Assembly (NCBI GenBank): GCA_028718945.1
Contig: JAQUKT010000003.1
Span: 624 to 64,623, forward strand
Length of the DNA: 64,000 nucleotides
Source of the DNA: Actinomycetota bacterium
Lineage (GTDB): Bacteria > Actinomycetota > Geothermincolia > Fen-727 > JAQUKT01
Reading direction: 5' to 3'
Part shown: piece by piece, positions 32,389 to 63,149 of the stretch
Position numbering within the stretch: position 1 is the first letter of the stretch
How the letters are laid out: each line of letters opens with the position of its first letter
Notes under the pieces: generated by a model
What the model saw: only the letters and a program-made list of their open reading frames with translations
Told to the model about the DNA's origin: nothing
Database searches by the model: none
Translations under genes and position numbers: made by a program

Positions 32389-32931
32389 TTGATTTTGAAC
32401 AACAAGTTCAAAATTCTTGTGACGGGACCATATAACTCGGGGAAGACAACATTCATAGGAACAATAAGCGAAATTCAGGTTGTATCTACCGAAAAAAAAT
32501 TGAGGAGTGCTCAAGGAACTACAACTGTGGCAATGGACTATGGAAGAATAACGTTGAGTGATGGAGATGTTATTCACCTTTATGGGACACCGGGTCAGGA
32601 AAGATTTGATTTCATGTGGAGAATTCTTTCAAGGGGGATTCTCGGTTACGTTGTGCTTGTTGATGGAAGCGATCCGGGGGCTTTCGCTCAAGTCTCAAAA
32701 ATTATTGATGTTTTTTCTAAGATGACTGATGCCCCGTACGTTTTATGTTTGACCCGTGCCGATCTTAGGGATTGCGTCTCTTCGGAAGAGGCAAGAAGGT
32801 TTATTAGGGCTTCCGCTGATGTAGATATCCTCGAATGCAATGCGAAGAGTAGAGAGGATGTGAGGGATGTCATAGTGTCTCTTCTTGAAAGAGTCATTGA
32901 GAGTATGGAGGCTAAGTGTTTCGTTCCATAG
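32389..32931 (+). CDS. Small Ras-like GTPase, COG2229 (CvnD/MglA-related) type
   Basis: P-loop GPYNSGKTT, TTVAMDYGRI, LYGTPGQERFDFMW and VVLVD match Roadblock-associated COG2229 GTPases. Confidence 0.75.
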   Translation: MILNNKFKILVTGPYNSGKTTFIGTISEIQVVSTEKKLRSAQGTTTVAMDYGRITLSDGDVIHLYGTPGQERFDFMWRILSRGILGYVVLVDGSDPGAFAQVSKIIDVFSKMTDAPYVLCLTRADLRDCVSSEEARRFIRASADVDILECNAKSREDVRDVIVSLLERVIESMEAKCFVP

Positions 32932-38177: not shown

Positions 38178-38251
38178 TGTTAAAGTGTTTTCGACTATTT
38201 GCCGAATATTAGAAAGAAATAAAGTTAGGATTGAAAGGAGGTGAAAGTCAA

Positions 38252-38596
38252 ATGAAGGTTATTCGCAGTAATAAAGGCTTCACGCTTATTGAACTTATGA
38301 TTGTAGTTCTTATCATTGCCATCCTGGTTGCGATAGCTGTGCCTGTCTATATAAACACTCAGGAAAACGCAAAGAAGAGAGCCTGTCAGGACAATGTGAG
38401 AACGGTGGACGGGCAGATACAGGCGTATCAGGCAAGTGAGCCAAATCAATCATATCCAGCCAATCTTGCCGCTCTTGTCACTGGTAAGTTCCTGAAAAGT
38501 ACTCCAATGTGCTCGAAGTCGGCGAGTGGAACATACGCTTGGATAACTGGTACTCCCCCTTACATATCCTGCACAGTCCATCCTCCGGTAGATTGA
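38252..38596 (+). CDS. pilA: Type IV (major) pilin PilA
   Basis: Class III signal MKVIRSNKG|FTLIELMIVVLIIAIL with Glu+5; SD AAAGGAGG. Confidence 0.85.
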   Translation: MKVIRSNKGFTLIELMIVVLIIAILVAIAVPVYINTQENAKKRACQDNVRTVDGQIQAYQASEPNQSYPANLAALVTGKFLKSTPMCSKSASGTYAWITGTPPYISCTVHPPVD

Positions 38597-40935: not shown

Positions 40936-41844
40936 ATGACCTGGTTTTATTATTTTGTTTCATTTTGTTTCGGGCTGATATTTGGAAGTTTTTTCAATGT
41001 TTGCATTTATAGGATTCCCAAGAAGGGATCGCTCGGAGAAAGGTCGAGGTGTCCTTTTTGCGGGGAGATAATACGTTGGTATGACAACATTCCGCTGTTG
41101 AGTTTCGCATTACTGAGAGCGAAATGCAGGCATTGCCATTCTCCCATTTCAATACAATATCCGATTGTCGAAGCTCTCACCGGTTCCTTGTTCGTTCTTG
41201 CTTACTGGTGGAGCACCGAATTTGTTCCTAAGGAATTGCACATAGAACAACAAGTTATTATCCCTGAACTCTTTCTCGGCCTTATTCTTGTCTCGATTCT
41301 CATTATCATCTCTGTGATTGATATTCAAAAGATGATTATCCCAAACATTGTAATCGGTCCGGGGATAGCCTTATCCTTTCTTTTGGTTGTCGCGTTTAGC
41401 CTTTCGAGGAGCCAACCAGGGCGTATCTCCCTTTCTCTTCTTTCAGGCACGATAGGGAGTGGATTCCTTCTAATTGTGGGGTTGCTTTACGGATATCTCT
41501 TCACGGAGAAATCCCCGCCTTCGGTGGAGGGGGATAAGGGAGAATCCGGGGAAGAAGAAATCAATGACGAAGGTGAAGGGATAAGAACGGGAGTGGGATT
41601 TGGTGATATCAAACTTGTTTTCTTCACCGGTCTCGTTCTTGGGTATTTTCACTGGTATTTGATCCTTGTTCAGTTGTTTTTTGGTTTCCTTATTGGCTCA
41701 CTGGTATCTATTGCACTTATGTTGATTTTCCATATTGGCAGAAAAGAACATGTTCCGTTTGGTCCATTTCTTGCTGCGGGTGCGGTAATCTCACTTGTAT
41801 TCGGTAGCAATCTTGTGGAGTTTTACCTGAAGATGTTTAGGTAA
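40936..41844 (+). CDS. pilD: Prepilin peptidase PilD (A24 family) with ~30-aa acidic loop insertion
   Basis: N-terminal tetracysteine CPFCG...CRHC, catalytic-Asp region GFGDIKL; insertion SVEGDKGESGEEEINDEGEG. Confidence 0.88.
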   Translation: MTWFYYFVSFCFGLIFGSFFNVCIYRIPKKGSLGERSRCPFCGEIIRWYDNIPLLSFALLRAKCRHCHSPISIQYPIVEALTGSLFVLAYWWSTEFVPKELHIEQQVIIPELFLGLILVSILIIISVIDIQKMIIPNIVIGPGIALSFLLVVAFSLSRSQPGRISLSLLSGTIGSGFLLIVGLLYGYLFTEKSPPSVEGDKGESGEEEINDEGEGIRTGVGFGDIKLVFFTGLVLGYFHWYLILVQLFFGFLIGSLVSIALMLIFHIGRKEHVPFGPFLAAGAVISLVFGSNLVEFYLKMFR

Positions 41845-42109: not shown

Positions 42110-42277
42110 TTGAGCAAAAAGTTACTTACAGTTAATGAAGTGGCTCAGATACTTCGCGTTTCGAATATGACCGTATATCGCCTTGTTAAAAGCAAACAGA
42201 TTCCAGCCATTAAGGTTGGAAAGAATTATCGCATAAAAGAAAGCGATGTGGATGACTACTTGAAAAGGGGCTCATGA
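42110..42277 (+). CDS. Small (55 aa) helix-turn-helix DNA-binding protein, excisionase/MerR-like family
   Basis: TTG-initiated ORF LSKKLLTVNEVAQILRVSNMTVYRLVKSKQIPAIKVGKNYRIKESDVDDYL. Below the 60-aa cut-off, so absent from the ORF track. Confidence 0.5.
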   Translation: MSKKLLTVNEVAQILRVSNMTVYRLVKSKQIPAIKVGKNYRIKESDVDDYLKRGS

Positions 42278-49076: not shown

Positions 49077-51074
49077 TCAATTTCCATTATCGAAGACGGT
49101 GGAATAATTCTTATAGACGATGATGCTAACACGCGTCATTTTGTCTTGAAGTTTACGGGAATCGGGGTTTAGCTTTACGGTAAAACCCTCATTCATGTTT
49201 GAAAGTTTTGCGTCTTCGATCAATGCCCCTCTTGATGCTTTCTCCGCCATTGCCCCGGCAGTCTCGCCTTTAGTAATCCCGACCATGAGAGTCATCGTTC
49301 CCTTACTTGCGGAAGATTCAACGCCAATGCTATTTCTTGTTATGCTCCATGAATCGGGATAGAGTTCCGAGTTGAGAAGGCAGGCGAAGAAAACCTTCTC
49401 TTCTCCTCCTGCAAGCAGGAATGGTTTCGCTACATTGAAGGGCGAAGAAATGGTTTCGGAAGCCCTTGGCATTGGAATTTTGCCTTCAGGAATGATTACT
49501 TCTCCTGATGGAGAAATTTCCAACTTCAGGAAGTCTTGTTTGAACGCCATGCCATTGCTTTCCTGCTCTCCTTCGCATTTCACATATACGAAGGGCTCTC
49601 CACGTGCAAGAATAATGGTGTATCTCCACCTTTGACCGGAGGAGTCGAAGACAACCTGGCATGCCACCTGGTCATTGCCGGAGAAGATAATTTTTGGCCC
49701 ATCAAATATCTTTGAGTTTTCTAAGGGGCTCAAAAGTGGACCTGCCTCCCCTCCGTCGGATAGACTGGTGATTTTTGAAAGGATTTGCCCGGGAATTTTG
49801 CCAATGCGCACACTTATAATCCCATTTGAAAGTTCAATTACATTTTTTGAAGTGTTGAACTCGGGTGGAGCGCCCGCAGCCTCGCTTAAGGTTTCAAGTC
49901 CTCCCAAGGTGAGGACATCTCCAAGGTCATGAAAAACACCGTTTTGCAAAACGGAAAGAGAAATTCTCGAAGTTACCCTTGCGAATTTCTTCTCGACTTC
50001 AAATCTACACATTCCGCTGCTATCGGTTTTGAGGTAAGCATCCCCGAGCATCCCGTTGATTGTTGAAGTGCCGGTTCTGTCAGAAATCCTGACCTGCGCA
50101 TTCTCAACGGGCATTCCATCTTTTCGCCTGAGTTGCAGTTCAAAATCCTGCGGTGTGTTGAGTGGCAAAACTTCCAGGGATGGTTCGATAGTGGCTTCAT
50201 ACTGAGGAGAGAATGCGGAAGAGACGGGTGCAATTGGGGCAATTTGCTTTCTACCATCGAGCTCCACGACAACATCGAGGTTTCTCAATAGTTCTTTTGG
50301 ATCAGTGTTTCTCGCGTCAATGTCAAACTCGAATACCCCATTCCTGTCTGCCATTCCCTCAATCGCTGTCTTTCCGCAGAGAGCCTTTGTTCCTCCTTTG
50401 GAATCAACAACTTCTATTCTTGCCCCGCTCGCGCGTTTCAAAAGAATTTCCGGCTCGCTCGAGGCAAGAGTTCTTTCGATGTTGCTTTGCTTCGTCTTCA
50501 GGTTCTTTATCTCGCCTGTTAATTCAAAACCTCCCGCGAAATCTCTTTTGCCCATGATTTCACTGGCGGATTTCAGTTTGCTGTTGTAGTCAATACTTGC
50601 AAGCTCAATGTTTTCATGCTCAGCCTCTTTGGATTCAATGAGTTTTTGAACCTCTGAAAGCCTGACGTTTGCAAGTTCGAGATATTTTTTTGCCTTATTC
50701 TTCTGATTGAACGTAAAGGCAAGGGACACATTTTCTCCTGCCTTCTTGAATGTATATAAAGGGTCTCCAGGTTTCGTGTTTCGCGCAGCAACTGTAAGTC
50801 CCCCGAAAATCGCGAAAAGAAGAACAAGTGAAATACCCGCACTGACCGCTATTTTGAAGGGCAAACTTCTCTTGAGCGCTCGATGCTCTTCTCCTGCGCG
50901 CCTCTCAGTAGCCGGTATGAAAATGGAAGGAAAAAGTGAAGCAAAAAATATCTTTACCTTGAATGCCAACCCCGCTTTTGCTTTTGGGATAGCCTTCAAT
51001 CTTTGGACTATCGCGAGCAAATCCTCGTATTGTTTCATATTACTTTTACTATTCAGGTTTCTTTTGTTTCTCAT
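49077..51074 (-). CDS. Membrane-anchored anti-sigma factor-like protein with DUF5667-like extracytoplasmic domain
   Basis: Overlaps and follows the ECF sigma gene; single TM (AVSAGISLVLLFAIFGG), then PGDPLYTFKKAGENV...LELANVRLSEVQKL, DUF5667-like. Confidence 0.55.
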   Translation of the reverse strand: MRNKRNLNSKSNMKQYEDLLAIVQRLKAIPKAKAGLAFKVKIFFASLFPSIFIPATERRAGEEHRALKRSLPFKIAVSAGISLVLLFAIFGGLTVAARNTKPGDPLYTFKKAGENVSLAFTFNQKNKAKKYLELANVRLSEVQKLIESKEAEHENIELASIDYNSKLKSASEIMGKRDFAGGFELTGEIKNLKTKQSNIERTLASSEPEILLKRASGARIEVVDSKGGTKALCGKTAIEGMADRNGVFEFDIDARNTDPKELLRNLDVVVELDGRKQIAPIAPVSSAFSPQYEATIEPSLEVLPLNTPQDFELQLRRKDGMPVENAQVRISDRTGTSTINGMLGDAYLKTDSSGMCRFEVEKKFARVTSRISLSVLQNGVFHDLGDVLTLGGLETLSEAAGAPPEFNTSKNVIELSNGIISVRIGKIPGQILSKITSLSDGGEAGPLLSPLENSKIFDGPKIIFSGNDQVACQVVFDSSGQRWRYTIILARGEPFVYVKCEGEQESNGMAFKQDFLKLEISPSGEVIIPEGKIPMPRASETISSPFNVAKPFLLAGGEEKVFFACLLNSELYPDSWSITRNSIGVESSASKGTMTLMVGITKGETAGAMAEKASRGALIEDAKLSNMNEGFTVKLNPDSRKLQDKMTRVSIIVYKNYSTVFDNGN

Positions 51075-51663
51075 GATTCAGGTCTTCTTGTTTTCCTTCC
51101 TCGAGACCGGAAGCTTTTTCTGATTCACCAAGTTTTTCTCTTAAGTTCTTTATTCCCTTGAACTGAAGCGCTCTTACTGTCACCTCTTTCTTACCCAGGA
51201 TATATGCAGTTTCCGCGACGCTTCTATCCTCAATAAACCTCAATATCAGAACCTCTGCTTGTGCCTTTGGCAATTCAGTCACATTTCCATATAGAGTTTT
51301 CAAATCATCTTTCTTCTGAATGTCCTCTTCAATCCTGTTTTCAACCGGTATATCCGCTACTTCATCAATGTCCAAAGATCCCTTTTGTTTCCTGAAATTG
51401 TCGACCACCTCGTTATGCGCAATCTTGAAGAGCCATGCTTTTACAGAATATCCCCTCTCCTCATAGGACTCCACGGTTCTCAGCCCATGCATGAAGACCT
51501 GCATCGTAAGGTCTTCCGCGTCGCTTCTGTTTCCGGTTCTTCTGTATATGTAGTCATAAATTTCCTCATAACACAGCTTGAAGAGCCTCCCATACGCTCT
51601 CCTGTCACCTTTTCTCGCCATTTCTACGAGACTTCTTAGCAAGTCTTCCTGGCTTTTCGCCAT
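51049..51663 (-). CDS. ECF (sigma-70 region 2/4) RNA polymerase sigma factor
   Basis: Region 2 (YRRTGNRSDAEDLTMQVF) and region 4 HTH (AEVLILRFIEDRSVAETAYILGKKEVTV). Confidence 0.85.
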   Translation of the reverse strand: MAKSQEDLLRSLVEMARKGDRRAYGRLFKLCYEEIYDYIYRRTGNRSDAEDLTMQVFMHGLRTVESYEERGYSVKAWLFKIAHNEVVDNFRKQKGSLDIDEVADIPVENRIEEDIQKKDDLKTLYGNVTELPKAQAEVLILRFIEDRSVAETAYILGKKEVTVRALQFKGIKNLREKLGESEKASGLEEGKQEDLNHEKQKKPE

Positions 51664-51821
51664 TACCTTCTATCCTTTGAAACGAATGACAGCTTATTTT
51701 GTTAACTCTTACATTTCGAGGTCGGCATAACCTTTGGGCCCTGTCATATTATAATGCGCCTGGCAATTCTTGAGCTTCGGGGCTGCTATAAATCAGATTG
51801 GAACATTTTTTATCTAACCGC

Positions 51822-51848
51822 AAATGTGTCATTGCAAGACCTGACCCC
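51822..51848 (-). repeat. REP-like repeat arm A, solo, minus orientation
   Basis: CAAATGTGTCATTGCAAGACCTGACCCC is the reverse complement of arm A. Confidence 0.8.
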
Positions 51849-51869
51849 ATGTTGTAAGGTAAGGGTGTG

Positions 51870-52445
51870 ATGGAAAAAATTTCGATTTCTGGTTTCTCCA
51901 CATTCGAGATGTTTTTTCTCGTTTTCGTGCTGTGCGTTTTCTTTCTCGGGGTTGTTCTCGTTCCCGCCCGCCTGCCAGAGGGGAATTTCAGGAAAAGTTC
52001 AGAACTTGAAAATCAAGCAAGGGTCCTGGTTGGGAAAATTGAAAAAATCCTCGAAGGGGCTTTAAGAGTTGAACTGAAAGAGGGCGGCAGCTCTGATTGT
52101 ATTGTTGTATTTCAGAATCTCGATGGTGATGCAGGTACAGGTGGCTTCAGAGCAGATGAGGAAAGGGGATTAGAGCGGGTTGTCATTCGAAGGGAAAGTC
52201 ATAATAGCCGGAAACTCGGGGCATTAGTCTATTCAAAGCCAGGCATTTTGAAGGGGAGGGTTACTTTGACCGAATTCCTCGATGTCAAAAAGGGATTACC
52301 TTTTGAATTGAGGTATAAATTCATGAATCGAAAAGCGAACCTGAAAGAAATTTCGGTTCGTGTAAGATTGAGGAAAGGGGAAAGTGCATTTGCGTTTGAA
52401 AAAATTGTTAGATTGAAGAGAAATCCCGGGGTATTTTTCTTTTGA
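51870..52445 (+). CDS. Pseudopilin / minor pilin (prepilin-type N-terminal domain)
   Basis: MEKISISG|FSTFEMFFLVFVLCVFFLGVV class III leader with Glu+5. Confidence 0.6.
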   Translation: MEKISISGFSTFEMFFLVFVLCVFFLGVVLVPARLPEGNFRKSSELENQARVLVGKIEKILEGALRVELKEGGSSDCIVVFQNLDGDAGTGGFRADEERGLERVVIRRESHNSRKLGALVYSKPGILKGRVTLTEFLDVKKGLPFELRYKFMNRKANLKEISVRVRLRKGESAFAFEKIVRLKRNPGVFFF

Positions 52446-52528
52446 AGATATGGATTCTCGAATGTAAACCTTGTGCATGAAAAAGCGTTATAATAAATAA
52501 AGGAAGCTGGTAAAAAGGGAAGGAAGGC

Positions 52529-53119
52529 ATGAACAAGAAGGATAATTTGAGATGTCTCAATCAAGATAGCTTTACCATAGCAGAACTCCTTATTGTTATT
52601 GGTTTGATAGGGATTTTGCTCACTGTTACGGTTATTTCTTATGCGGTTTCGAACAGGTCAACAGACCAGAGGGCTGGCGTAGAGATGCTCAAAGAAGAGA
52701 TAAGAAGAGTGTATTCTCTTGCTAATTCTGCGGTTAAGACAAACGGACAGAGAGACAGGTATAGAATTGAGTTCCGTCGCCTCGGTGAGGGTAGTGACCC
52801 AAAAAACTGCTACAGGGTTCTAAAACTTACGTGGAATGGCTCGTCATGGGTTCCAGGTGTTGTTCCGGCAATGAGACAGACCTCGGTAAAGATTGTTGAC
52901 GAGGCAAACGGATGGGTGAGGCCATTTTCCTCTGGTGAGCCGTACATAAATGCATATACCGGCATGTCCACGCTTTCTGGATACAATGGGGTAACTTTTG
53001 TTTCAAAGGGCTCAATAGTTGAGACAGACACCGCTGGCGAAAAAACGGTTATCGTGAGGGTTCCCCCAAATAGCGACATCACCATAAGAATTTCACAGTA
53101 CGGATCAGTTTCAGAATAG
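52529..53119 (+). CDS. Pseudopilin / minor pilin
   Basis: ...NQDS|FTIAELLIVIGLIGILLTV hydrophobic N-terminal helix with Glu+5 (Ser at -1). Confidence 0.6.
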   Translation: MNKKDNLRCLNQDSFTIAELLIVIGLIGILLTVTVISYAVSNRSTDQRAGVEMLKEEIRRVYSLANSAVKTNGQRDRYRIEFRRLGEGSDPKNCYRVLKLTWNGSSWVPGVVPAMRQTSVKIVDEANGWVRPFSSGEPYINAYTGMSTLSGYNGVTFVSKGSIVETDTAGEKTVIVRVPPNSDITIRISQYGSVSE

Positions 53120-53122
53120 CTC

Positions 53123-53650
53123 TTATCTTTGATATTTGCCGGTTACCCAGTCAAAATCGTTCTGCCAGTTTCTCCCAGGGGTACTAAATCCAGGGCTATC
53201 GGGATGAGGATTCCCACTTTTTTCCATGTCCCTTATGCCAAACACATAAAAACATCCTCTTGAGGAATCAGCACCATAAGAGCCAGCCCCGTACCTGTAA
53301 TAGTGCATGTTCCCGCTTGCATGATAAAGCCTCCCGGTAGGGTCCTTGAACATTTTTGAGATGAATCCCTCATCCTTAAGCGGTTTGATAAATATACCGT
53401 CTGCATCACCATCCCAGCCACCCCAGTCATTATCGGTGTTTGCAGGGTAATTACCTTTGGCGTCCTTGTATCTTTCGAGAGCCTCGGGAATTGCTTTAGC
53501 GTATGAAAGTCGGGTGGCATCCGCGGTGTCTTTCGTGTTTGCAATATAAACGGGAACCGCAATTCCCACAAGAACTCCAATAATGCCGATCACCATCATC
53601 AGTTCGACTATCGTAAATCCTTTGTTTTTCGCACCAAGTACACTCCTCAA
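53123..53650 (-). CDS. Type IV pilin (second pilin gene)
   Basis: MRSVLGAKNKG|FTIVELMMVIGIIGVLVGIAVP canonical prepilin leader. Confidence 0.75.
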   Translation of the reverse strand: MRSVLGAKNKGFTIVELMMVIGIIGVLVGIAVPVYIANTKDTADATRLSYAKAIPEALERYKDAKGNYPANTDNDWGGWDGDADGIFIKPLKDEGFISKMFKDPTGRLYHASGNMHYYRYGAGSYGADSSRGCFYVFGIRDMEKSGNPHPDSPGFSTPGRNWQNDFDWVTGKYQR

Positions 53651-53724
53651 TTTAGACCTCCAATTTGTTATTATACAATATATAAAACGATAAATCTCCT
53701 CTTTCGTTTATATGGGGTCGCCCA

Positions 53725-55110
53725 CTAAATTGAAGGGTCGCCGATGAGAGTCATGCCGAGAACGACTCTCCTTTGGTCTGAATTTTTCATGAGGGAGGAG
53801 TTCCTGACAGTGTATTCGTCAATAGCCCGCGCAAGCGCGTCTCCAAATGTCATTTTCTTGTTGATGAAATTCTCGAGAACGTCCTCTCCAATCTCAAAGT
53901 GCAGCCCTCCGGTTTTTTCAAGCGCGGCTTTGTAGTCATCCCTTGTGAAAGAGAAGAAATCCCTTGACATTCCGCAGGCAGAAATTGCACCACCCTCTTG
54001 CATCACGAGCGCTTCTGTAATCGAATAGTCCGGTTCATAATCGAAAGCCGAAATAACGCACCCGAAACCGAGGAAGAAAAAGGGCGTTTTGTTCCTGAGG
54101 TTTTTAACCTTCTCCGAATCAAGAACCGCCTCAGAAAGTTCTTTTTCATACCATTTTGAATATCTTATATCCCGGCAGGCTTCAAGGACATTTTTCTCAT
54201 CTTGGGGCGAGATTCCCCGCGATTGGAGGCTTTTCAGCCTCTTTATTGAATTTACCACCAGACCGAATGGAAAACCGTGGGTTATTCCTACAACGACAGA
54301 GTAATTCCCGCTGTTGATTTCTCTTATTACCTCGGAAGGAGTTATTTTCCCCTCACGTAGTATTTTCCCTTCCCATCCTTGAAAGATAGACCTGAGGCGC
54401 TTTGAGAAATCATACCCTTTCAAGATTTGTCCCATGTCCTTCAGGGCTTCTATCAAAAGGTATCTTTCTTCCCCGGGTTTTCTGTAATCCATGATTTTTT
54501 CAATAACCGGTTTCAGGTCACGGGCAGATTTTGCTGGGATCCTTCCAACTGAAATATCATGGGAATATCCACCTTCAAGCAGGTTGCCGGTGATTTCCCC
54601 GTATATGCCGTTTCTATTTATATCCCAGTTGTCAGAAAGATTCGCGAAATAAAGGTCAGATGGCACGTAGTATCTTTCATACTCGAGCGGGTTTCCTCTT
54701 CTGGCTTTTTCTCTTTCCCGTTCCCTTCCCGGAACCACTCCCTCGAATGGGCAGTAAACATATCTAACCGGAACCAATTTCTCATCGCCGAGTAGAAGAA
54801 GGTATTTTATCTTTTTTCGCCTGTGATATTCGCGCACGAGTTCTCTCATTTTTTCTGGTAGGTCTTTCCCCTCAAAGTTCTTCTCTATGTGCGATGTTGT
54901 TACAACGGCTGCTGGAATACCATTCTTCGTCTTGAACCTTGCGAGTTTTTGAGCGTCCTCGAAAAACTCTTTATGAGTGATAATCAGGAGGTCTATTTTC
55001 TTGCCCTGCTCTTTGGGATATATTTCCACCTGATTTGCGCAACCAGCAGAAAACACGCAAATTACCATTAAGGTAGATATTAGAGTAAGCGCAAACCTTA
55101 AATATTTCAC
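53725..55110 (-). CDS. Lipoprotein, clan CD (C25 gingipain/C11/caspase-like) cysteine peptidase-like
   Basis: Lipobox LMVICVFSAGC; hydrophobic strand + His-Gly (VVVGITHGF) and hydrophobic strand + small-Cys (FFFLGFGCV) as in clan CD catalytic dyads. Confidence 0.5.
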   Translation of the reverse strand: MKYLRFALTLISTLMVICVFSAGCANQVEIYPKEQGKKIDLLIITHKEFFEDAQKLARFKTKNGIPAAVVTTSHIEKNFEGKDLPEKMRELVREYHRRKKIKYLLLLGDEKLVPVRYVYCPFEGVVPGREREREKARRGNPLEYERYYVPSDLYFANLSDNWDINRNGIYGEITGNLLEGGYSHDISVGRIPAKSARDLKPVIEKIMDYRKPGEERYLLIEALKDMGQILKGYDFSKRLRSIFQGWEGKILREGKITPSEVIREINSGNYSVVVGITHGFPFGLVVNSIKRLKSLQSRGISPQDEKNVLEACRDIRYSKWYEKELSEAVLDSEKVKNLRNKTPFFFLGFGCVISAFDYEPDYSITEALVMQEGGAISACGMSRDFFSFTRDDYKAALEKTGGLHFEIGEDVLENFINKKMTFGDALARAIDEYTVRNSSLMKNSDQRRVVLGMTLIGDPSI

Positions 55111-55245
55111 GATGACCTTTCTTGACTTACATTTGAAATGTTAACATTCTGCTGGGACATTTATTTTTCAACTTTCTTCTGTTTTCCTCCGAATACTCGA
55201 ACAAAGGCAAATAAAGGCAAAAAAGAGTATAATTCAAAAGAGAAA

Positions 55246-55269
55246 CACCAAAAATGAAGGTCTGACCCC
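55246..55269 (+). repeat. REP-like repeat arm B
   Basis: CACCAAAAATGAAGGTCTGACCCCC is identical to 9903-9925. Confidence 0.75.
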
Positions 55270-55365
55270 CGCGTAAACGATGAAGGGTGTTTTTCGTTAT
55301 AAATATTGGAGTTCTGGTAAAATAATATCGTGAATATATGCTTTCCCTTGGGGAAAGGAGGAAAG

Positions 55366-58086
55366 GTGAATAAGCGGGTGAATAAGCGGGTAAGGGCAGT
55401 TTTTCTTTCGCAGCAAGGTTTTTCGCTTGCAGAGGTTCTGGTGGCTTTTGTTCTGTTTACCACATCCGTCTTGGGCATATCAGTGATGCTTACAAGTGGT
55501 GGCGCGAATGTCATGCGTGGCGCGATGGAAAGCAAAGCGTCCGAACTTGCCGCGAAGAAAATTGAGGAAGTAAAGTCGCTTCGATATTATGCTCCATATT
55601 CAAGTGAAGACAATGACATTGATGACTACTATTACAATGCGTCCTACTCAAATGCGGAGCAGTTCGACCACCCGGTTGCAATTGAGGACTATGGAACAAT
55701 TTCTGGTTACGAGGACTACAAAAGAACAACAGCGGTTCAATACCAGTATGTAAGTGGCGGGGCTCTTACTCCCGCGGTGATGGATCCTTTGTGGAAACCA
55801 AAGAATGCTACCACTCCATACTTCGACAGACCAAAAGGTGGTCCAGCCGGTGGACCCTATGATTATCTGCACGTTATCGTAATTCAGGTCAAGGTTTATT
55901 ATCACCATGAAACTGCCCCTTCGGGTTCGGAGTTATGCTACACGGCACAGGGAATTTCAGGAGACATACTTGTAACTGGCGGAACGAATCAGCCTTTGCT
56001 TGTAATAAACTCGATTAGCCCCGTGACGGGTGCTCTCGGGGATACAAACATGCAGATGAAAATATATGTGACCTCAGCAGGGATGAATGACACATCTCAA
56101 CTCGAGGTATATCTGTGGTATCCGGGGCTTGCTGATTATTCAGCAAAATCAAGCCCTGCTCCGCAGTCAAATGCGGCTGGAACTGAGATAACCTGCTATT
56201 TTGACCTTTCTTCAGCGAGCGTAAGACCGGGATATTACAATATTGCGGTTTACTGGAAGGACAGAGGCGTAAAGGCAAAGTACAGGGATAATGTATTCAC
56301 GGTCATACAGCCTCCACCAGTAATAACGGGAATCTCAAATTTCAACTGGGGCTACAGGGGTCAGAATTCTCGGCAGGTAACCATTACCGGAAACTATCTT
56401 AAGAATCCGGACTCGGTGAAACTCAAAGGTCCTAACCCTGGCGATACATATTCAATTAACGGTGGGATTGTTTCCTCTACAATTAATCAGATTGTCGTGA
56501 AATTCGATCTTACCGGCGATTCAACAACAAGACCGCCAAACTCAAAGTGGAATGTTGAGGTAACAACGGGTGGAGGAACTGATACTTCTTCAAGCGATTC
56601 TGAAAGGGTCTGGATGAACCCTCCGCCAAACATAACCGCTGTTACTGGAAGCAGCCCGCCAAACTACTATAACTGGGCGTACAGGTCACTGACAACGAGA
56701 AAGGTTAGAGTTGAGGGAACATATCTTTACGGAATGAACGATGCAGCAAGCTCCGCAAAACTCAAATTCGGCTCGTTCTCTACTGGAAATGCGGCTTTCG
56801 TTTCTGGTCCTTACGGGAACAACTGTAATCACACCGACCCAATAATAATGAATTTCAATCCGAATTCAGCGGGAGCGGATTCAACCACAAACAACACTCA
56901 ATGGAAAGTGAGCATAACAAATCATGGTGGAACAAACGAATCCGATGATGTGGGGTCTGAAAGGGTCTTGATGAACCCACCACCCACCTTGAGTTCGCTT
57001 TCAGGCTTCCCGAGCCCCGCATATACGGGCTCGAGGGGTGGAAGCATCTACAATAACCTGACTGTAAATGGCACATACATCCAGAATAATTATTCGGGCG
57101 TTTATCTCACGAGAAACAGTGGTTCAGCCCCTGTTTCTGGAACGACGTACGTGAGGCTAACAGGCGGTTCATTGAACGATGCTGGAACACAGATAACGGG
57201 CTGTCAGGCAAAGGTTTATGTCAATCCAATGAGTGACTCATTCGACCAGTGGTCCGGGACAACTGACGCGACAAATGCCAACATCGGTGGTAATTACTAT
57301 CTGTACCTTGTGAATGGAGACAGTCAGGCGGGCATTCTTGGAACCGCGTATCCAATTACGCATGCCACTTATTCGATATCCTGCACGGCAACTCCATCGG
57401 GATGGGGAAGCGTATCAGGACCGGGAACATATTATCAGGATCAATCATACAGTCTTACCGCAAACCCGGTCAGTTCTTCGGGAAATTATCTTGGTGCTTT
57501 CAGGGTTTGGCAGGAGCCTCCAGGGACAGACCAGTGGAGTTATGCATATCCGCTTACCGGAACCGCAACCGCGTCGAGGAGCCTCAACTGCAGGTTCTGT
57601 AAATGGTTCTATCATGGAGACCTTGGTAACCCGGGCGCTAACATAGCAACCTGGCAGCAAACTGTGAATGATTCGCCTTATGACAATAACAATTACTTCT
57701 ATGACAACGGTGGATACTACGTTATGAAAATAAGGTCAAAAGCCAGCATCTCATTCCTATCCGCAAATTCTGGAGAAGTGGGGGCAAGGACGAACGCTCA
57801 GGTTGACTACACAGGCGCGACGACCCTCTGGTTCTACATGCAGCAGCAGGATGGAAATAACAACGGTGCTGCAAACAGGTCATATATCTGTTCATCTACC
57901 GGAACGGGCGATAGATGGAATGTTGGTTCACTCTGGGGTAGTGATGATGTTTACGATTTTGGCTGGAGACCCGTAAGCGTTTCTGGAAGAGCAGCCGGAT
58001 ATATCCACGTGAACTCCCAGACCGATTATTCAGTTCTTGGTGGGAACTCTACTGATACCCGGGTGAGGTATATTTTCATAGAGTAG
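55366..58086 (+). CDS. Large (~907 aa) prepilin-leader protein, Thr/Ser/Gly/Asn-rich adhesin-like minor pilin
   Basis: GTG start after AGGAGG; leader MNKRVNKRVRAVFLSQQG|FSLAEVLVAFVLF; extended -10 TGGTAAAAT at 55316-55324. Confidence 0.65.
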   Translation: MNKRVNKRVRAVFLSQQGFSLAEVLVAFVLFTTSVLGISVMLTSGGANVMRGAMESKASELAAKKIEEVKSLRYYAPYSSEDNDIDDYYYNASYSNAEQFDHPVAIEDYGTISGYEDYKRTTAVQYQYVSGGALTPAVMDPLWKPKNATTPYFDRPKGGPAGGPYDYLHVIVIQVKVYYHHETAPSGSELCYTAQGISGDILVTGGTNQPLLVINSISPVTGALGDTNMQMKIYVTSAGMNDTSQLEVYLWYPGLADYSAKSSPAPQSNAAGTEITCYFDLSSASVRPGYYNIAVYWKDRGVKAKYRDNVFTVIQPPPVITGISNFNWGYRGQNSRQVTITGNYLKNPDSVKLKGPNPGDTYSINGGIVSSTINQIVVKFDLTGDSTTRPPNSKWNVEVTTGGGTDTSSSDSERVWMNPPPNITAVTGSSPPNYYNWAYRSLTTRKVRVEGTYLYGMNDAASSAKLKFGSFSTGNAAFVSGPYGNNCNHTDPIIMNFNPNSAGADSTTNNTQWKVSITNHGGTNESDDVGSERVLMNPPPTLSSLSGFPSPAYTGSRGGSIYNNLTVNGTYIQNNYSGVYLTRNSGSAPVSGTTYVRLTGGSLNDAGTQITGCQAKVYVNPMSDSFDQWSGTTDATNANIGGNYYLYLVNGDSQAGILGTAYPITHATYSISCTATPSGWGSVSGPGTYYQDQSYSLTANPVSSSGNYLGAFRVWQEPPGTDQWSYAYPLTGTATASRSLNCRFCKWFYHGDLGNPGANIATWQQTVNDSPYDNNNYFYDNGGYYVMKIRSKASISFLSANSGEVGARTNAQVDYTGATTLWFYMQQQDGNNNGAANRSYICSSTGTGDRWNVGSLWGSDDVYDFGWRPVSVSGRAAGYIHVNSQTDYSVLGGNSTDTRVRYIFIE

Positions 58087-58098
58087 AGGGGAAGAGAT

Positions 58099-58722
58099 TT
58101 GAAGCAAAGAAAAGCTGAAGAAAACAAAAAGCAATGCGAGGGTTTCACGCTCGTGGAACTTCTCATTGTTGTTGTGCTTTCGTTCATAATGATTTTTGGA
58201 ATGGTTGGTCTCATCGAGATGGCATTCGGGACTTTCCGGTCGAGGCGCGATGTTCAGCAGGTTACAGATACCGCGAGAACGGCGCTCTCCACCATGGAAA
58301 GACAGCTCAAAGGTGCTCTGTACTTTAATGACGATGATTGTACAGCCTCACAGGTTTCCTTCTATGCTGACGTAGATAACGACAACCCGTCCGCGAATTC
58401 GAACAACTGGACCGAAGGGGAAAAGGTGGTTTTCTCAAAAAGTGGGGCAAATGTCGTTCAGACTACCACGCAACCAACATCGGAAGGAGGCGGTGTTACG
58501 ACCGCGAACCTCGGTGGTTACTGTAGCAACTTGCAGTTATTCTACTTCGCGTCAGGAGTGAAGCCTCACTGGAATGGTTCCACTTACGATAACGCGATAA
58601 CCCTTCCGGGTGACGTTAACAAAAACTGCGGGATGGTAAAGGTAAGGCTTACACTCACGAGCGGAAAGATTATGAGGTATTTTGAAAGAGACTGTTTTTT
58701 GAGAATACTCAAACGCGGGTGA
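58099..58722 (+). CDS. Pseudopilin (PilW/GspJ-like)
   Basis: ...QCEG|FTLVELLIVVVLSFIMIFGMVGL prepilin N-terminal domain. Confidence 0.65.
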   Translation: MKQRKAEENKKQCEGFTLVELLIVVVLSFIMIFGMVGLIEMAFGTFRSRRDVQQVTDTARTALSTMERQLKGALYFNDDDCTASQVSFYADVDNDNPSANSNNWTEGEKVVFSKSGANVVQTTTQPTSEGGGVTTANLGGYCSNLQLFYFASGVKPHWNGSTYDNAITLPGDVNKNCGMVKVRLTLTSGKIMRYFERDCFLRILKRG

Positions 58723-58723
58723 T

Positions 58724-61639
58724 GTGGAGGTAGGAAAGATGAGGAAAATCTGGGATTTCAAATGGGGAAGGATAAAGGACGAATCGGGGTATGTTCTCAT
58801 CATGGCTCTTTTTGTCATTCTCATTCTTTCCCTTATTGGAGTTGCTCTTACGGTTGTTGGGATCCAGGAATATACGATTTCTTCGCTTACAAAACTGATG
58901 GACCAGTCTTATGCCATTGCTGACGCGGGGGTGAACCGCGCGGCTGTTCACATTCAGTTGAACCCGGACCTCACGAAGACAACTTCTCCCGCATACCCCA
59001 CAGCCCAGTACGGACCCGCCTCGGAAAACTTCGGTGGTGGTCAGTTCACATATTCGATTTATCAGAGCAACATATATCCAAGCGACCCCACAATGAAGAT
59101 AATAAGGTCAACCGGAAAAATAACCAGGGGCGGTAAGACCTCCGAGAGAACGATTGAGGCTCAAATCCAGATTGGAGCGGGTAGCGAAGAATACGACGCC
59201 TCGTTTGACTACTGCATATACAACGGGAACTCCGATTCGGGCGGAACCGGAACATGGCCATCGGTTCTTAGATTTGGTGGATATATTTCTGGAAACTATT
59301 ATTTCGATGGTCTTACACCTTATGAGGGAAGGTCTCCAAAAGGCGCTGTCTATACAAAGGGAAGCATTCAGATTCCGGTATGGCTTCTTGGTGACATAAT
59401 ATACAAGGGAAATATTGTTGCTACCGATAACATTGAGATACGAAATACCTGGCACGCTGACTGGAATGATCCGGGAATCCAAATCCAGAACGGCAGAGCA
59501 ATCGCAGGTCTTGACGGAACTGGAAATCTTTCGGTAAAAGTTGCGGAATGTATTGCCGCGACTAAGCCGGCATTAAGTATTCCTTCACCGAGCAGAGTTG
59601 TTGCCGCTGGAGACATAACAATTGATACATTGGTAAATGCCTCACTTTCAAATGTTCTTGAAATCGGTGATGTGAAGGCTGGCGGAAATGTAAGAATATC
59701 GGGTACTTTCAATATAAGCCAGGCAATGCAGATTGGGAATGTTATTTCGGGTGGGAAAACAACTGTTGAGAGTCGCTGGCTTAACGGAATAAACGTTGGG
59801 AACATCTGGGCTGGGCAGGCAGCGGATGGTCTTGGTGTTGACCTTGATACCGAGGCGGCGTCTAAGATTACCGTCGCGGGAATAACATCCAGAGGAAAGG
59901 TCAATGCCGAGGCGGACGTAGCAGGAATTTCTACCGCGAACATAATTGCCGGAAATGACATAACTGGTTCAACGGGAGGTATTGGTGTTCGCTTCAAGAT
60001 TGCGTGGCTTTCAGGCACGAGTGTTGGAACTATTATTTCTACGGGAAGAGTTAACCTGGAGGCAGTGAACATCTCAAACATTACAACCGGTTCAATATAT
60101 GCTGGAGCCGATGCAGGTGGAACGGGCGTTTATTGGCAGGGTAATGTTTTATCATCTATAGACTGCGGTGACGTGTATTCTGTTGGGTGCGTATATGCAA
60201 ATTTGGCTTCGGGTTCCGACATTTCGATTGGTTTAATTAATTGCGAGTCCTATGTTTACTTGACGGGGAAGGAGTGGTCGTCTGTTAGCGACGACATCAT
60301 TGTGGATGGAGCAATAAAGGCAAAAGATTATGTGAAGATAACAGGCTATGACGACATAATGGTTTATGGTGCCATAACAACGGAGTCATGGGTTTGGATA
60401 AAGGATTACTATGGGTCATTTTCACTTGGGAACGTCCGAATTTATGGTAACGTATGGGCGGATACCGAGATCTGCCCCGATACTGGTTATACAATCAGGA
60501 TTGAAAACGAATTGTGGCAGGACTGCGATGTTCATGGTTCTATTATGGCAAGGGGTCCGATACGTTATTTGTCAACTCAACCAGGAGTTACAGGTGAGGG
60601 TGATACCTACATTGATGGCGGATTATGGGGAACATCCGTGAAGGTTACCCGAGATTGGGGTGGAGGTTATGGTGACCTCTATGTAGGGAAAATTTCTGGC
60701 AGTAATGATTCGATAAGGTCTACCGGGAATGTTGAATGCAAAGGCGCGGGCGACGTCTTTGATGATGATATAATCTTGGGAGGCGGTTCAGGGGACATAC
60801 GCTACAACGGCTCGACTGACATCGATGATACCGATTACGGTTCGACGTTCGGTGGATATACAAGCCTTCCAGATGCTCCCAACCTTGGGAATCTTGTAAC
60901 GACTCCAGCGAAGCCGAATCCGGTATATGTTGACAGGAATGGCGTATTTGATGAGCCGGGACCTGCTGGTCAGAACAAAAACGTTGATGTTCTCGCGGAA
61001 GCGGGACTTCACGGAACCGTTGATTTGCTTGAGCCAAACTGGGAATACTTTGAGACAATGGCAAAGCAGGATGACGCGAGCAATCCCGGTGCCCCGCACA
61101 TGATTTATGATGGTGGAGCGGGAGATAAAGATGGGGTTGTGAACGATGAGATTAAATTCCAGTGGGATACAACCACCCCTTACTCCACTAATGAAACTGT
61201 CTACAATGGAGACCCTGATGTCAGCATAGTCATCAACAAGCTGGACTGGACTGGAAGGGGACCGAAGTTCACAGGGACGCTTGTTTCAAGAGGAAGTATT
61301 TACATGTCTTGTAGTAGTACAGACTGGACTATGGAACAAGAAGAGACTTTGAACCTTGTTTCCGGTTACGACATATCCTCGAAGACTGCGGGTCTTACGG
61401 TCTGGGAAAACCCCAACTGCCATTACCACTGGTGGGCGGAGCACAACATTGACATATCAAACATGAGGTTTTCACTCGGCGGAGGTCAAACCTACTACGG
61501 TTCATTCACCGCTGGAAATACAGTCATGTACGCGGATAACTCCTTCTGGCCTGATAGCACTTTCAGGTGGTCAAGGTGGGAACTCGATCCTGTTGCATGG
61601 GCTCCGCCATTTGATATTCTCGTCTGGAAGGAGATTTGA
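58724..61639 (+). CDS. Giant PilX-N-like pilus-associated protein with beta-helical Gly/Asn-rich repeats (971 aa)
   Basis: N-terminus GYVLIMALFVILILSLIGVALTVVG resembles the PilX N-terminal domain; ~600 aa of repeated GN(I/V)..G..(V/I) units typical of beta-helix/solenoid. Confidence 0.6.
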   Translation: MEVGKMRKIWDFKWGRIKDESGYVLIMALFVILILSLIGVALTVVGIQEYTISSLTKLMDQSYAIADAGVNRAAVHIQLNPDLTKTTSPAYPTAQYGPASENFGGGQFTYSIYQSNIYPSDPTMKIIRSTGKITRGGKTSERTIEAQIQIGAGSEEYDASFDYCIYNGNSDSGGTGTWPSVLRFGGYISGNYYFDGLTPYEGRSPKGAVYTKGSIQIPVWLLGDIIYKGNIVATDNIEIRNTWHADWNDPGIQIQNGRAIAGLDGTGNLSVKVAECIAATKPALSIPSPSRVVAAGDITIDTLVNASLSNVLEIGDVKAGGNVRISGTFNISQAMQIGNVISGGKTTVESRWLNGINVGNIWAGQAADGLGVDLDTEAASKITVAGITSRGKVNAEADVAGISTANIIAGNDITGSTGGIGVRFKIAWLSGTSVGTIISTGRVNLEAVNISNITTGSIYAGADAGGTGVYWQGNVLSSIDCGDVYSVGCVYANLASGSDISIGLINCESYVYLTGKEWSSVSDDIIVDGAIKAKDYVKITGYDDIMVYGAITTESWVWIKDYYGSFSLGNVRIYGNVWADTEICPDTGYTIRIENELWQDCDVHGSIMARGPIRYLSTQPGVTGEGDTYIDGGLWGTSVKVTRDWGGGYGDLYVGKISGSNDSIRSTGNVECKGAGDVFDDDIILGGGSGDIRYNGSTDIDDTDYGSTFGGYTSLPDAPNLGNLVTTPAKPNPVYVDRNGVFDEPGPAGQNKNVDVLAEAGLHGTVDLLEPNWEYFETMAKQDDASNPGAPHMIYDGGAGDKDGVVNDEIKFQWDTTTPYSTNETVYNGDPDVSIVINKLDWTGRGPKFTGTLVSRGSIYMSCSSTDWTMEQEETLNLVSGYDISSKTAGLTVWENPNCHYHWWAEHNIDISNMRFSLGGGQTYYGSFTAGNTVMYADNSFWPDSTFRWSRWELDPVAWAPPFDILVWKEI

Positions 61640-61657
61640 CATTTGATGTATCTTAAA

Positions 61658-61688
61658 AGGACCGGCTCAGAGCCGGTCTTTTTTATAT
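61658..61688 (+). terminator. Rho-independent terminator after the minor-pilin operon
   Basis: GACCGGC-tcaga-GCCGGTC followed by TTTTTTATATT, directly after the 61639 stop. Confidence 0.65.
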
Positions 61689-61735
61689 TGGTTGTTTTTT
61701 TGATAATATCTACATGTTTGAAAAGGAGGCGGAAG

Positions 61736-62221
61736 TTGAGATTTTTTGCATTAAGGAAAGGGCTTGCGTTTCTGCTCGTTTTTCTCTTCATTGCTGGATT
61801 TTCGGGTTGCGGGCGGAGTGTGGATTCCTACAAGGCGGAATACAAAAAAAGGCTCGATTCTTTCGAGGATAGAGTCACGAAGGACGACAAAAAAGTTGGA
61901 GGGCTGATTTCGAAAAATGACATAGCGGGGGCTTTGAAGGAAATAAGAAGGAGAGTGCGTGATGTTGATTCCTTTACCACTAAGATGATTGACATGCTTC
62001 CGCCGGATGAGCTTCAAAGAGTCTATATCCTTACCCTCTATTACCTCTCCTGCCTTGCCAGTCAACTCGAGGCGCAGGAAAGCTGGCTTGACGCCGCAAT
62101 TGCGGGAAAGCCAACCAATGATTTGCAGGAAATCGTGAAGAAAGAAGCGGGAAAAACAAAGTTTGCCGGTTCTGAACTTGCCATTGAACTTCAAAAGCAG
62201 GGAATCACCCTCAACAAGTAG
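61736..62221 (+). CDS. Hypothetical lipoprotein
   Basis: TTG start after AGGAGG; signal MRFFALRKGLAFLLVFLFIAGFSGC (lipobox). The longer ORF from 61643 merely translates the terminator hairpin. Confidence 0.5.
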   Translation: MRFFALRKGLAFLLVFLFIAGFSGCGRSVDSYKAEYKKRLDSFEDRVTKDDKKVGGLISKNDIAGALKEIRRRVRDVDSFTTKMIDMLPPDELQRVYILTLYYLSCLASQLEAQESWLDAAIAGKPTNDLQEIVKKEAGKTKFAGSELAIELQKQGITLNK

Positions 62222-62291: not shown

Positions 62292-63149
62292 ATGAATCGC
62301 TGCGAAAAACACCCCGATGAAGATTCAATGGTTACCTGCATGAGTTGTGGAAGGAACTTCTGCAGAATCTGCCACCCGCTCCTCGGTGCCGGTCAGTATT
62401 GCCCGAGGTGCCATGAGGAATACATCGAGAAGCTCGGGAAGGGCGCCGAAGCGATTCCAGTCGAGCAAAAAGGCAAGTCAAAATCTCTATTGAAATCTCT
62501 TGTCGAGAAAATCAAAAGATTTTTCAGCGCCGTGCCGAACGCGATTCTTTCCGCTTTGAGGAAATGCGCGAAGTTCTTTGTTTTTATTGCTCACCTTCCG
62601 GTAAGGATTTTCAGAAGAGTCGCAAGCGAAATCAAAGAACACTTCCCGTTTTCTCTCGCTGAAAGAAAGGATTTATCAGATATATCAGTTTTTCAAAAAA
62701 TCTGGTGGAAGCTCGTCATCTCTCTTTTTTCGGGTCTTATTCTATGGGTTATTGTGGTTATGATTTTCCACCAGAGGAATCCAGCCTTTTCGCTTGTAGT
62801 TTCAGCCATTGTTGCTTTTTTTGTTTCCTTCTTTTTTGGCTGGGAATTCGGGGTTCCAGTCGGAATACTTTCATGCCTCGTTGTGCTTGGAGCGCTTTCG
62901 CTTGGTGAAGTAGTGGCACAGGTCTTGTGCAGGGCGAAAATATTGAGACTAAACGATGTTCAAACCATAGGTATCGTTCAGCTTGGGAGCAAGGAAACAT
63001 TTGGATTTTCGTTTGTCATCAAGGTAATTCTTCAAAGGCTTCTTCCCTCGGCAGCGCTTGCCTTCCTGATAGGCTACTGGCCGCTTCCCAAGCGCCCTGC
63101 CTGGCGCGGCTGGCATGGGGTCAGGTCTTGCAATACGACAAAATCTTGA
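62292..63149 (+). CDS. Zinc-ribbon/B-box-like N-terminal domain membrane protein (hypothetical); 3' end overlaps a REP copy
   Basis: CEKHPDE...CMSCGRNFCRICHP...YCPRCH Cys/His pattern followed by ~4 TM helices; last 11 codons (WHGVRSCNTTKS) lie in the repeat. Confidence 0.5.
   Translation: MNRCEKHPDEDSMVTCMSCGRNFCRICHPLLGAGQYCPRCHEEYIEKLGKGAEAIPVEQKGKSKSLLKSLVEKIKRFFSAVPNAILSALRKCAKFFVFIAHLPVRIFRRVASEIKEHFPFSLAERKDLSDISVFQKIWWKLVISLFSGLILWVIVVMIFHQRNPAFSLVVSAIVAFFVSFFFGWEFGVPVGILSCLVVLGALSLGEVVAQVLCRAKILRLNDVQTIGIVQLGSKETFGFSFVIKVILQRLLPSAALAFLIGYWPLPKRPAWRGWHGVRSCNTTKS
63117..63143 (+). repeat. REP-like repeat arm A, 20 nt upstream of the RAYT start
   Basis: GGGGTCAGGTCTTGCAATACGACAAAA. Confidence 0.8.

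Follow-up and report, generated by a model that had tools for sequence, protein, structure and literature searches.

A probable ECF-controlled minor-pilin operon with two giant modular pilins and an inserted gingipain-family peptidase gene in a deep-branching actinomycetotal lineage

What does a gene for a gingipain-like cysteine peptidase do inside a type IV pilus locus, and are the pilin genes around it controlled by the sigma factor of extracytoplasmic function (ECF) type encoded next to them? These questions are raised by a pilin island at 49077-61688 of a 64,000-nucleotide stretch of DNA, referred to here as the window, which is taken from contig JAQUKT010000003.1 of an NCBI metagenome genome labelled 'Actinomycetota bacterium' (GCA_028718945.1); the host is a deep-branching Actinomycetota lineage related to 'Ca. 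Geothermincolia'. Type IV pili of monoderms, and of Actinomycetota especially, are poorly understood, and the regulation of minor-pilin tip composition is known mainly from a few proteobacteria. Based on conserved gene order, promoter motifs and pilin-type signal sequences, we consider it probable that the region is the minor-pilin operon, encoding the priming or tip complex, of a type IVa-like pilus whose core genes lie upstream, that this operon is ECF-controlled, and that the genes for the C25 peptidase and a GspG-like pilin have been inserted into it.

The island comprises an ECF sigma factor and a putative anti-sigma factor on the minus strand, five prepilin-type genes on the plus strand encoding proteins of 192, 196, 918, 207 and 971 amino acids (aa), and the C25 lipoprotein and the GspG-like pilin (175 aa), both on the minus strand between the 196-aa and 918-aa genes. 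All genes that an earlier note on this DNA had listed were found in place by gene inspection and a Pfam profile search. The order of the plus-strand genes is FimU/GspH-like, PilV-like, PilW-like and PilX-like, preceded by an extra 192-aa pilin-like gene. The class III signal motif, with glycine at position -1 and Glu5, is found in the 192-, 175-, 918- and 207-aa proteins, and the 196-aa protein has serine at -1. The Pfam N_methyl profile (cut-off 21.2 bits) scores above threshold for the 175-aa (27 bits) and 207-aa (22.4 bits) proteins only, falling short for the 196-aa (17.4 bits) and 918-aa (18.5 bits) proteins, and gives no match to the 192-aa protein. The sub-threshold pilin assignments therefore rest on directly read motifs, on orthology and, for the 971-aa protein only, on structure prediction.

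Gene by gene, the first pilin-like gene (192 aa, 51867-52445) carries the motif G/FSTFE, read from the sequence, and has weak orthologues at the same position in relatives. The second (196 aa, 52529-53119; S/FTIAE) resembles GspH/FimU-like minor pilins, with a sub-threshold match to TIGR01708 (GspH; E = 1.2e-4) and orthologues that are 38-41% identical. Following the insertion, the PilV-like giant occupies 55330-58086 as a 918-aa open reading frame (G/FSLAE) and matches TIGR02523 (PilV) with E = 1.5e-5 over residues 28-96. The fourth gene (207 aa, 58099-58722; G/FTLVE) encodes a minor pilin of the PilW/GspJ/ComGD class with weak matches to HpsC, ComGD and GspH, and its orthologues are 37-44% identical. 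The last gene, at 58724-61639, encodes the PilX/GspK-like giant of 971 aa (966 aa in the NCBI call), which scores 19.7 bits against PilX_N (PF14341), below the cut-off of 25.5 bits. In this family G22 and Y23 are invariant across 22 homologues and Glu5 is absent. A terminator-like hairpin on the plus strand at 61655-61683, with a 13-bp stem followed by a run of T, marks the end of the operon; a scan for sigma-70 promoters and terminators otherwise returned nothing better than shuffled sequence.

The two giants had been predicted to carry prepilin-type N-termini, which the motifs (G/FSLAE in the PilV-like protein, PilX_N-type in the other) bear out. The likely true start of the PilV-like giant is GTG at 55366, directly after AAGGAGG, giving a protein of 906 aa; its leader peptide includes VNKR-VNKR, encoded by a perfect 12-nt tandem duplication (GTGAATAAGCGG twice, 55366-55389). 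Relative to its orthologues this protein is 42-48% identical over residues 27-690, and its C-terminal 230 aa are not conserved. No internal repeats were detected in it by self-BLAST, and a PDB sequence search yielded chance-level matches only, so that no domains were assigned. For the 971-aa protein, the prediction that it consists largely of a beta-solenoid agrees with an AlphaFold2 (AF2) model (predicted local distance difference test score, pLDDT, 81), in which an N-terminal helix (residues 20-79) and a four-stranded sheet (96-150) are followed by a beta-solenoid of about 550 residues (~160-710) and a C-terminal beta domain. The prediction is thus of a long beta-solenoid mounted on a pilin fold, and the giants presumably display this and other beta-rich modules at the pilus tip for adhesion. 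The same arrangement of an N-terminal pilin helix and sheet joined to a large module is seen in the modular pilins ComZ of Thermus thermophilus, a beta-solenoid on a pilin, and PilB/PilC of Streptococcus sanguinis. ComZ (6qvi) is among the top Foldseek matches of the 971-aa model, but the match is not significant (E = 0.38, template modelling score 0.08-0.15) and there is no sequence similarity; in the 971-aa protein, moreover, the solenoid of about 550 residues is followed by a further beta domain.

Gene order in the island is the same as in the fimU-pilV-pilW-pilX(-pilY1-pilE) operons of P. aeruginosa and Myxococcus and in the GspH-I-J-K set of the type II secretion system, in which the last subunit likewise lacks Glu5. 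As with the proteobacterial minor-pilin operons, the major pilin is encoded elsewhere, and the products of these genes are expected to prime assembly and to cap the filament. However, unlike the Pseudomonas and Myxococcus operons, the island belongs to a monoderm and contains no PilY1, its PilV-like and PilX-like subunits are themselves 900-970 aa long, and its family scores are sub-threshold. The Pseudomonas minor-pilin operon is controlled by the two-component system FimS-AlgR, whereas control here is apparently exerted by the adjacent ECF sigma/anti-sigma pair.

The sigma factor (51049-51663, minus strand) contains only sigma2 and sigma4 domains (Sigma70_r2, r4 and r4_2) and scores 88.8 bits against the ECF model TIGR02937, for which the cut-off is 42.9. 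Among NCBIfam models it scores best against TIGR02952 (BldN family), with 141.5 bits, under the equivalog cut-off of 206.45, and its best PDB match is the BldN chain 6dxo_A (E = 1.4e-23); given a best model that is sub-threshold yet agrees with the best PDB match, we describe the protein as BldN-like only. Orthologues of the sigma factor are 62-64% identical. The putative anti-sigma gene (49077-51074, minus strand) adjoins and overlaps the sigma gene, an adjacency kept in all relatives examined, and its orthologues there occupy the same position at 28-31% identity. In its product, some 70 residues are cytoplasmic; a single transmembrane helix, a DUF5667 domain (residues 100-188; Pfam E = 6.2e-16) and an extracytoplasmic domain of about 470 aa come next, the external part amounting to some 570 residues in all. 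Pfam recognised no known anti-sigma domain in this protein and a PDB search returned no solved-structure homologue, with matches at chance level; a literature search for 'DUF5667' found no papers. As read from the sequence, the topology of the DUF5667 protein fits an anti-sigma sensor. It also recalls Streptomyces, where the ECF sigma factor BldN is encoded beside a single-pass anti-sigma factor, RsbN, with a large, fast-diverging extracytoplasmic domain, and drives genes for cell-surface structures (PMC6101532, PMC4255298). The likeness has limits, in that the anti-sigma factor of the window carries DUF5667 and has no detectable similarity to the PDB RsbN chain, and in that BldN targets chaplins and rodlins whereas the putative targets here are pilins.

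Conservation of the whole arrangement supports its being one module. The 971-aa family had 36 matches in Actinomycetota metagenomes, and the neighbourhoods of seven independent orthologues were examined: L003/L007 (labelled 'Acidimicrobiales'), L005/L006/L008, a JGI contig with P0062, L012, L024 ('Ca. Geothermincolia'), L025 and L027. Gene order was identical in all seven islands from aroC-aroK-aroB-aroQ to a gene for a zinc-ribbon membrane protein. After aroQ come the DUF5667 protein and the ECF sigma factor on the minus strand, then proteins of ~210 and ~195 aa, a giant of ~800-950 aa, an N_methyl protein of ~210 aa and the PilX-like giant of ~980 aa; every island ends at its 3' side with a ~190-aa lipoprotein and the ~300-aa zinc-ribbon membrane protein. 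The giants of these islands are 34-52% identical to those of the window, and by BLAST only the 175-aa pilin and the C25 protein of the window's island had no orthologues there.

At the 3' end of the window's own island, the corresponding membrane protein (62292-63149, ~290 aa) has an N-terminal double CxxC zinc-ribbon with a weak DUF7564 match. The lipoprotein reading frame before it (61643-62221, 192 aa) has a listed start that overlaps the hairpin at 61655-61683, and its orthologues align only from residue 49-62; the true start probably lies downstream, just ahead of the ...FSGC lipobox. Both proteins may be further components of the system.

Promoter motifs also link the sigma factor to the pilin genes. 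The window and all six relatives with available DNA have the motif GTAAAC-N16-CGTTATAAT ahead of island genes. With one mismatch allowed, it occurs exactly twice in the 64-kb window against 0.15 occurrences expected, both times intergenic and on the plus strand: P1 (52464-52491; GTAAAC-N16-CGTTAT(AAT)) lies upstream of the 196-aa gene, and P2 (55273-55300; an exact GTAAAC-N16-CGTTAT match) upstream of the 918-aa gene. The position orthologous to P1, upstream of the second island gene, carries the motif in L003, L005, L012, L024, L025 and L027, the -10 element in L012 being CGTTTT instead of CGTTAT; the CG preceding TTATAAT is invariant in all sites. About 20 nt before the ATG of the sigma gene itself, GTTAAC-N16/17-CGTTT is found in the window, L005, L012, L023, L024, L025 and L027, and L003 has the variant GGAAC...CGTTTC; the copy in the window (51679-51706, minus strand, GTTAAC-N16-CGTTTC) is a candidate autoregulatory promoter. 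ECF promoters, for example those of B. subtilis SigW and SigX, are marked by a -35 element with AAC, a -10 element with CGT and a spacer of 16-17 nt, and an AAC/CGT pair with this spacing is present both at the sigma gene and at the island genes. From these motifs, P1 and P2 are most likely ECF-type promoters read by the divergently encoded BldN-like sigma factor. The earlier suggestion that the ECF pair is tied to the pilin island is thus strengthened by conserved synteny and by shared promoter motifs. A literature search on ECF sigma factors and pilins found no relevant precedent.

A second bipartite element, CTGACCCC-N12-15-AGGGTG, occurs on the plus strand of the window only at 51841-51867 and 55262-55289, against 0 expected. 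The copy at 55262 overlaps P2, and the first island gene of L012 is preceded by AGACCTGACTCC. This element may be a regulator site or the remnant of a promoter duplication.

The island motif could be read differently, as a housekeeping-sigma promoter with TATAAT as its -10 element and GTAAAC as an upstream activator or repressor site, in which case the ECF pair would be merely syntenic and would regulate other genes. We consider this unlikely. The -10 region does contain a perfect TATAAT, which would suit a housekeeping sigma factor with an activator site, but GTAAAC and TATAAT are 19 nt apart, more than a sigma-70 -35 element would allow, and the invariant CG before TTATAAT, the AAC and CGT elements and their 16-17-nt spacing are what an ECF promoter would show. 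Likewise, the sigma factor's own motif (GTTAAC...CGTTTC) differs from that of the island (GTAAAC...CGTTAT) at both elements, yet the sequence upstream of the sigma gene has the same AAC/CGTT architecture in seven loci. The motif is also missing at the first island gene (192 aa), a further point in favour of housekeeping control, to which may be opposed a paralogous type of island that also has its own ECF sigma factor.

This paralogous giant-pilin island was seen in L009, L010 and L026 and coexists with the first type in genome JAHJCO01. It encodes its own ECF sigma factor (32-34% identical), a putative anti-sigma factor containing Fn3 and a response regulator, co-directional with PilV-like and PilX-like giants. 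The presence of a different ECF sigma factor there suggests that the coupling of ECF factors to such islands is recurrent.

Returning to the motif as an ECF-type promoter, a second copy was found only in loci with an interrupted operon. That of the window stands downstream of the C25/pilin insertion, and those of L003 and L005 stand downstream of an extra gene (7376-8971 in L003, 7745-9202 in L005) inserted after the PilV-like giant and before the following pilin gene. The ~500-aa product of this extra gene is a fusion of a CcdA/DsbD-like membrane domain with two thioredoxin-like CxxC domains; considered as a counterpart of the C25 protein, it was rejected, being a thioredoxin/CcdA-type membrane oxidoreductase. 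In L024, L025 and L027 the operon is uninterrupted and has a single promoter copy. The insertion sites differ, the C25/pilin pair preceding the PilV-like giant and the oxidoreductase gene following it, which indicates that the operon tolerates accessory insertions at more than one place. The notion of an ECF-regulated tip-adhesin island, put forward in the earlier note for this one locus, is accordingly supported and extends to a clade-wide module with a defined promoter motif.

The C25 protein (461 aa; 53725-55110, minus strand) matches Peptidase_C25 (PF01364) at 146.4 bits, with a cut-off of 23 (E = 1.8e-42), over profile positions 2-372 of 374. Across 34 aligned homologues, conservation of His278-Gly279 and Cys351 is at least 90%. 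A profile of the family matches RgpB with E = 4.5e-33, Kgp with ~1e-17 and PorU with 1.8e-14, and the profile alignment to 1cvr/4ief pairs His278 with His211 and Cys351 with Cys244 of RgpB, residues being counted along the alignment as printed. Asp225 falls on the Asp of the family's 'GDT', at or next to Glu152 of RgpB, in a segment where the alignment is uncertain. An AF2 model (pLDDT 78; predicted template modelling score 0.81) has RgpB and Kgp structures (1cvr, 4ief, 6i9a and 4rbm) as its top Foldseek matches (E = 4e-15 to 1e-13). The likeness to the C25, clan-CD peptidases, namely the gingipains RgpB and Kgp and the type IX secretion sortase PorU, therefore covers the two-subdomain catalytic fold and the alignment of the His-Gly/Gly-Cys dyad and, tentatively, of an acidic third residue, and the catalytic-residue alignment, on which the assignment to clan CD could have failed, upholds it.

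Unlike those three enzymes, the protein of the window comes from a monoderm phylum and has a lipoprotein signal, with neither a prodomain nor a type IX secretion system (T9SS) C-terminal domain. Its N-terminus, MKYLRF...VFSAGC24, resembles a lipoprotein signal, and Gly23-Cys24 recurs in the closest homologue, so that the protein is probably a lipoprotein. Pfam found the catalytic domain only, with no prodomain, Ig/haemagglutinin or T9SS C-terminal domain (no PF08126 or PF18962, unlike matches from Bacteroidota), and the PorU model scores 79 bits, well under its cut-off of 420. As judged from sequence and model, the C25 protein is most likely an active cysteine protease, anchored in the membrane and located outside the cytoplasm. 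The segment 'GDTYP...EGE', where the S1 residue Asp163 of RgpB lies, is missing, and the specificity of the enzyme can therefore not be inferred.

The gene points the same way as that of the 175-aa pilin, which lies 74 bp downstream of it, and away from the giant-pilin operon. This pilin (53123-53650, minus strand; G/FTIVE) is GspG-like, matching TIGR01710 with E = 1.9e-12 in addition to N_methyl. Neither gene was found in any of the seven orthologous islands. Searches turned up only two relatives of the C25 protein above 40% identity: one, P0002 (44%; in L001), is encoded between nusB and pyrR beside a PMT_2 glycosyltransferase (L001 6082-7593) different from the TMEM260/PMT_2 enzyme of the window, and the other, in L014 (47%), lies beside GH3 and MFS genes. 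The L014 homologue (417-1840) is split over two overlapping frames (417-995 and 782-1840) and may be frameshifted, a pseudogene or misassembled. For the 175-aa pilin, homologues of its globular domain were found surrounded by metabolic genes (L020-L022) or, in L023, close to a further DUF5667/ECF pair and other pilin-like genes, and none lies next to a C25 gene in the loci examined. Absence from the orthologous islands, together with relatives that are located elsewhere and apart from one another, points to a lineage-specific insertion in a variable slot. The two genes showed no anomaly in GC or GC3 content, hence no compositional sign of recent transfer, and a search for direct or inverted repeats flanking the insertion gave only short, chance-level matches.

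The earlier note had suggested a regulated, proteolytically matured tip-adhesin system. On this reading the C25 lipoprotein would be a dedicated maturation protease, trimming or activating the giants, or the co-transcribed 175-aa pilin, after cleavage by the prepilin peptidase PilD and under ECF control. The location of the gene within the island, in the orientation of the pilin gene and divergent from the giants, would fit such a role, but all seven orthologous islands lack C25, and their giants, related as described above, evidently function without it. The enzyme does look catalytically competent and extracytoplasmic; its closest relatives, however, are encoded in unrelated contexts, beside PMT_2 between nusB and pyrR or next to sugar-metabolism genes, and no C25 gene adjoins any of the homologues of the 175-aa pilin. 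As for ECF control, no ECF-type motif was found upstream of the C25 gene on the minus strand, and the one candidate nearby is a weak site ahead of the adjacent pilin gene (ATAAAC-N16-CGTTTT, 53684-53711, minus strand, in the 74-bp gap), the third-best position-weight-matrix match in the window and not above shuffled controls. The idea of proteolytic maturation thus finds no support, and we regard a dedicated maturation protease as distinctly improbable. On sequence evidence, the C25 gene is not a conserved or core part of the pilus, and only its position links it to the pilus.

The protease might instead act on the regulator. As a site-1 protease, it would cleave the external domain of the DUF5667 anti-sigma factor and so free the ECF sigma factor, and in favour of this its gene lies 2 kb from that of a single-pass anti-sigma factor with a large external domain, and the protease is itself extracytoplasmic and membrane-anchored; ECF sigma factors are commonly activated by regulated proteolysis. 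However, the sigma/anti-sigma pair is kept in seven relatives that have no C25 gene nearby, and no ECF pair lies near either the L001 or the L014 homologue of C25, which leaves this possibility highly improbable.

A bolder proposal, which we put forward as speculation with little expectation that it is correct, is that C25 has been recruited into the ECF-controlled tip island to act on pilus components and that, independently, the BldN-like sigma/DUF5667 pair is a dedicated surface-sensing switch for tip composition in monoderms. The recruited enzyme might trim the non-conserved C-terminal modules of the PilV-like or PilX-like giants, or might be a PorU-like transpeptidase. A literature search on C25 or gingipain and type IV pili found no relevant precedent, and such a recruitment, if true, would be the first link of a gingipain-family enzyme to a type IV pilus.

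Our preferred reading remains that of an ECF-controlled minor-pilin operon with a C25/pilin insertion, and several points weigh against it in addition to the three features of the motif discussed above. The candidate promoters P1 and P2 are assigned from sequence motifs. The PilX_N and N_methyl scores of several genes lie under the Pfam cut-offs, and Foldseek found no PDB match to the 971-aa model with E < 0.1, the weak matches being beta-helix autotransporters and ComZ; the adhesin role of the giants is deduced from their architecture. The related loci number only about ten, all from metagenome genomes. Lastly, in this genome the C25 gene does sit inside the island, with a weak ECF-like site before the adjacent pilin gene, and a local link is possible.

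In the mechanism that we envisage, the DUF5667 anti-sigma factor would hold the BldN-like sigma factor inactive until its extracytoplasmic domain senses a signal. Once released, the sigma factor would transcribe its own gene, from GTTAAC-N16/17-CGTTT, and the minor-pilin operon from P1 and, in this genome, also from P2. The minor-pilin products would be processed by PilD, and four or five of them could assemble into the priming or tip complex, on which the two giants would display their adhesive modules. The C25/GspG-like pilin insertion, on the opposite strand and in an accessory slot, splits the operon, and P2, downstream of it, would restore transcription of the three distal genes.

The pilus served by this complex would be encoded just upstream, where a complete type IVa-like core cluster is interleaved with shikimate-pathway genes: aroE, pilB, pilT, pilC, the major pilin gene (121 aa, 38231-38596), a TMEM260/PMT_2-TPR glycosyltransferase gene on the minus strand, pilD (40936-41844; A24_N_bact and Peptidase_A24), a small helix-turn-helix gene, pilMNO, aroC, aroK, aroB and aroQ. 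No secretin gene was seen in the pilus cluster. The membrane glycosyltransferase between the major pilin gene and pilD (38655-40886) has C-terminal TPR repeats and may glycosylate the pilin. Directly upstream of pilM is a 55-aa open reading frame with an excisionase/MerR-type helix-turn-helix (42110-42277). Three further genes stand directly upstream of aroE-pilB: 29057-29593 encodes a Roadblock/LC7 protein, 29608-32382 a DUF4388 protein of 924 aa with a very long stretch rich in Glu, and 32389-32931 a Ras-like small GTPase. This trio looks like an MglB/MglA-type polarity module beside an actinobacterial pilus cluster.

The analysis thus disposes of the idea, attractive but without support, of type IV pilin maturation by a gingipain-like protease. 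In its place, a clade of uncultured Actinomycetota appears to possess a fixed module that sets a dedicated ECF sigma/anti-sigma pair beside a minor-pilin operon, with a recognisable promoter motif upstream and two giant modular pilins instead of a PilY1-type adhesin. The operon seems to cope with insertions by duplicating its promoter. With one sigma factor, one motif and about five genes, it offers a concrete regulon candidate that is relevant both to monoderm type IV pili and to ECF sigma factors.

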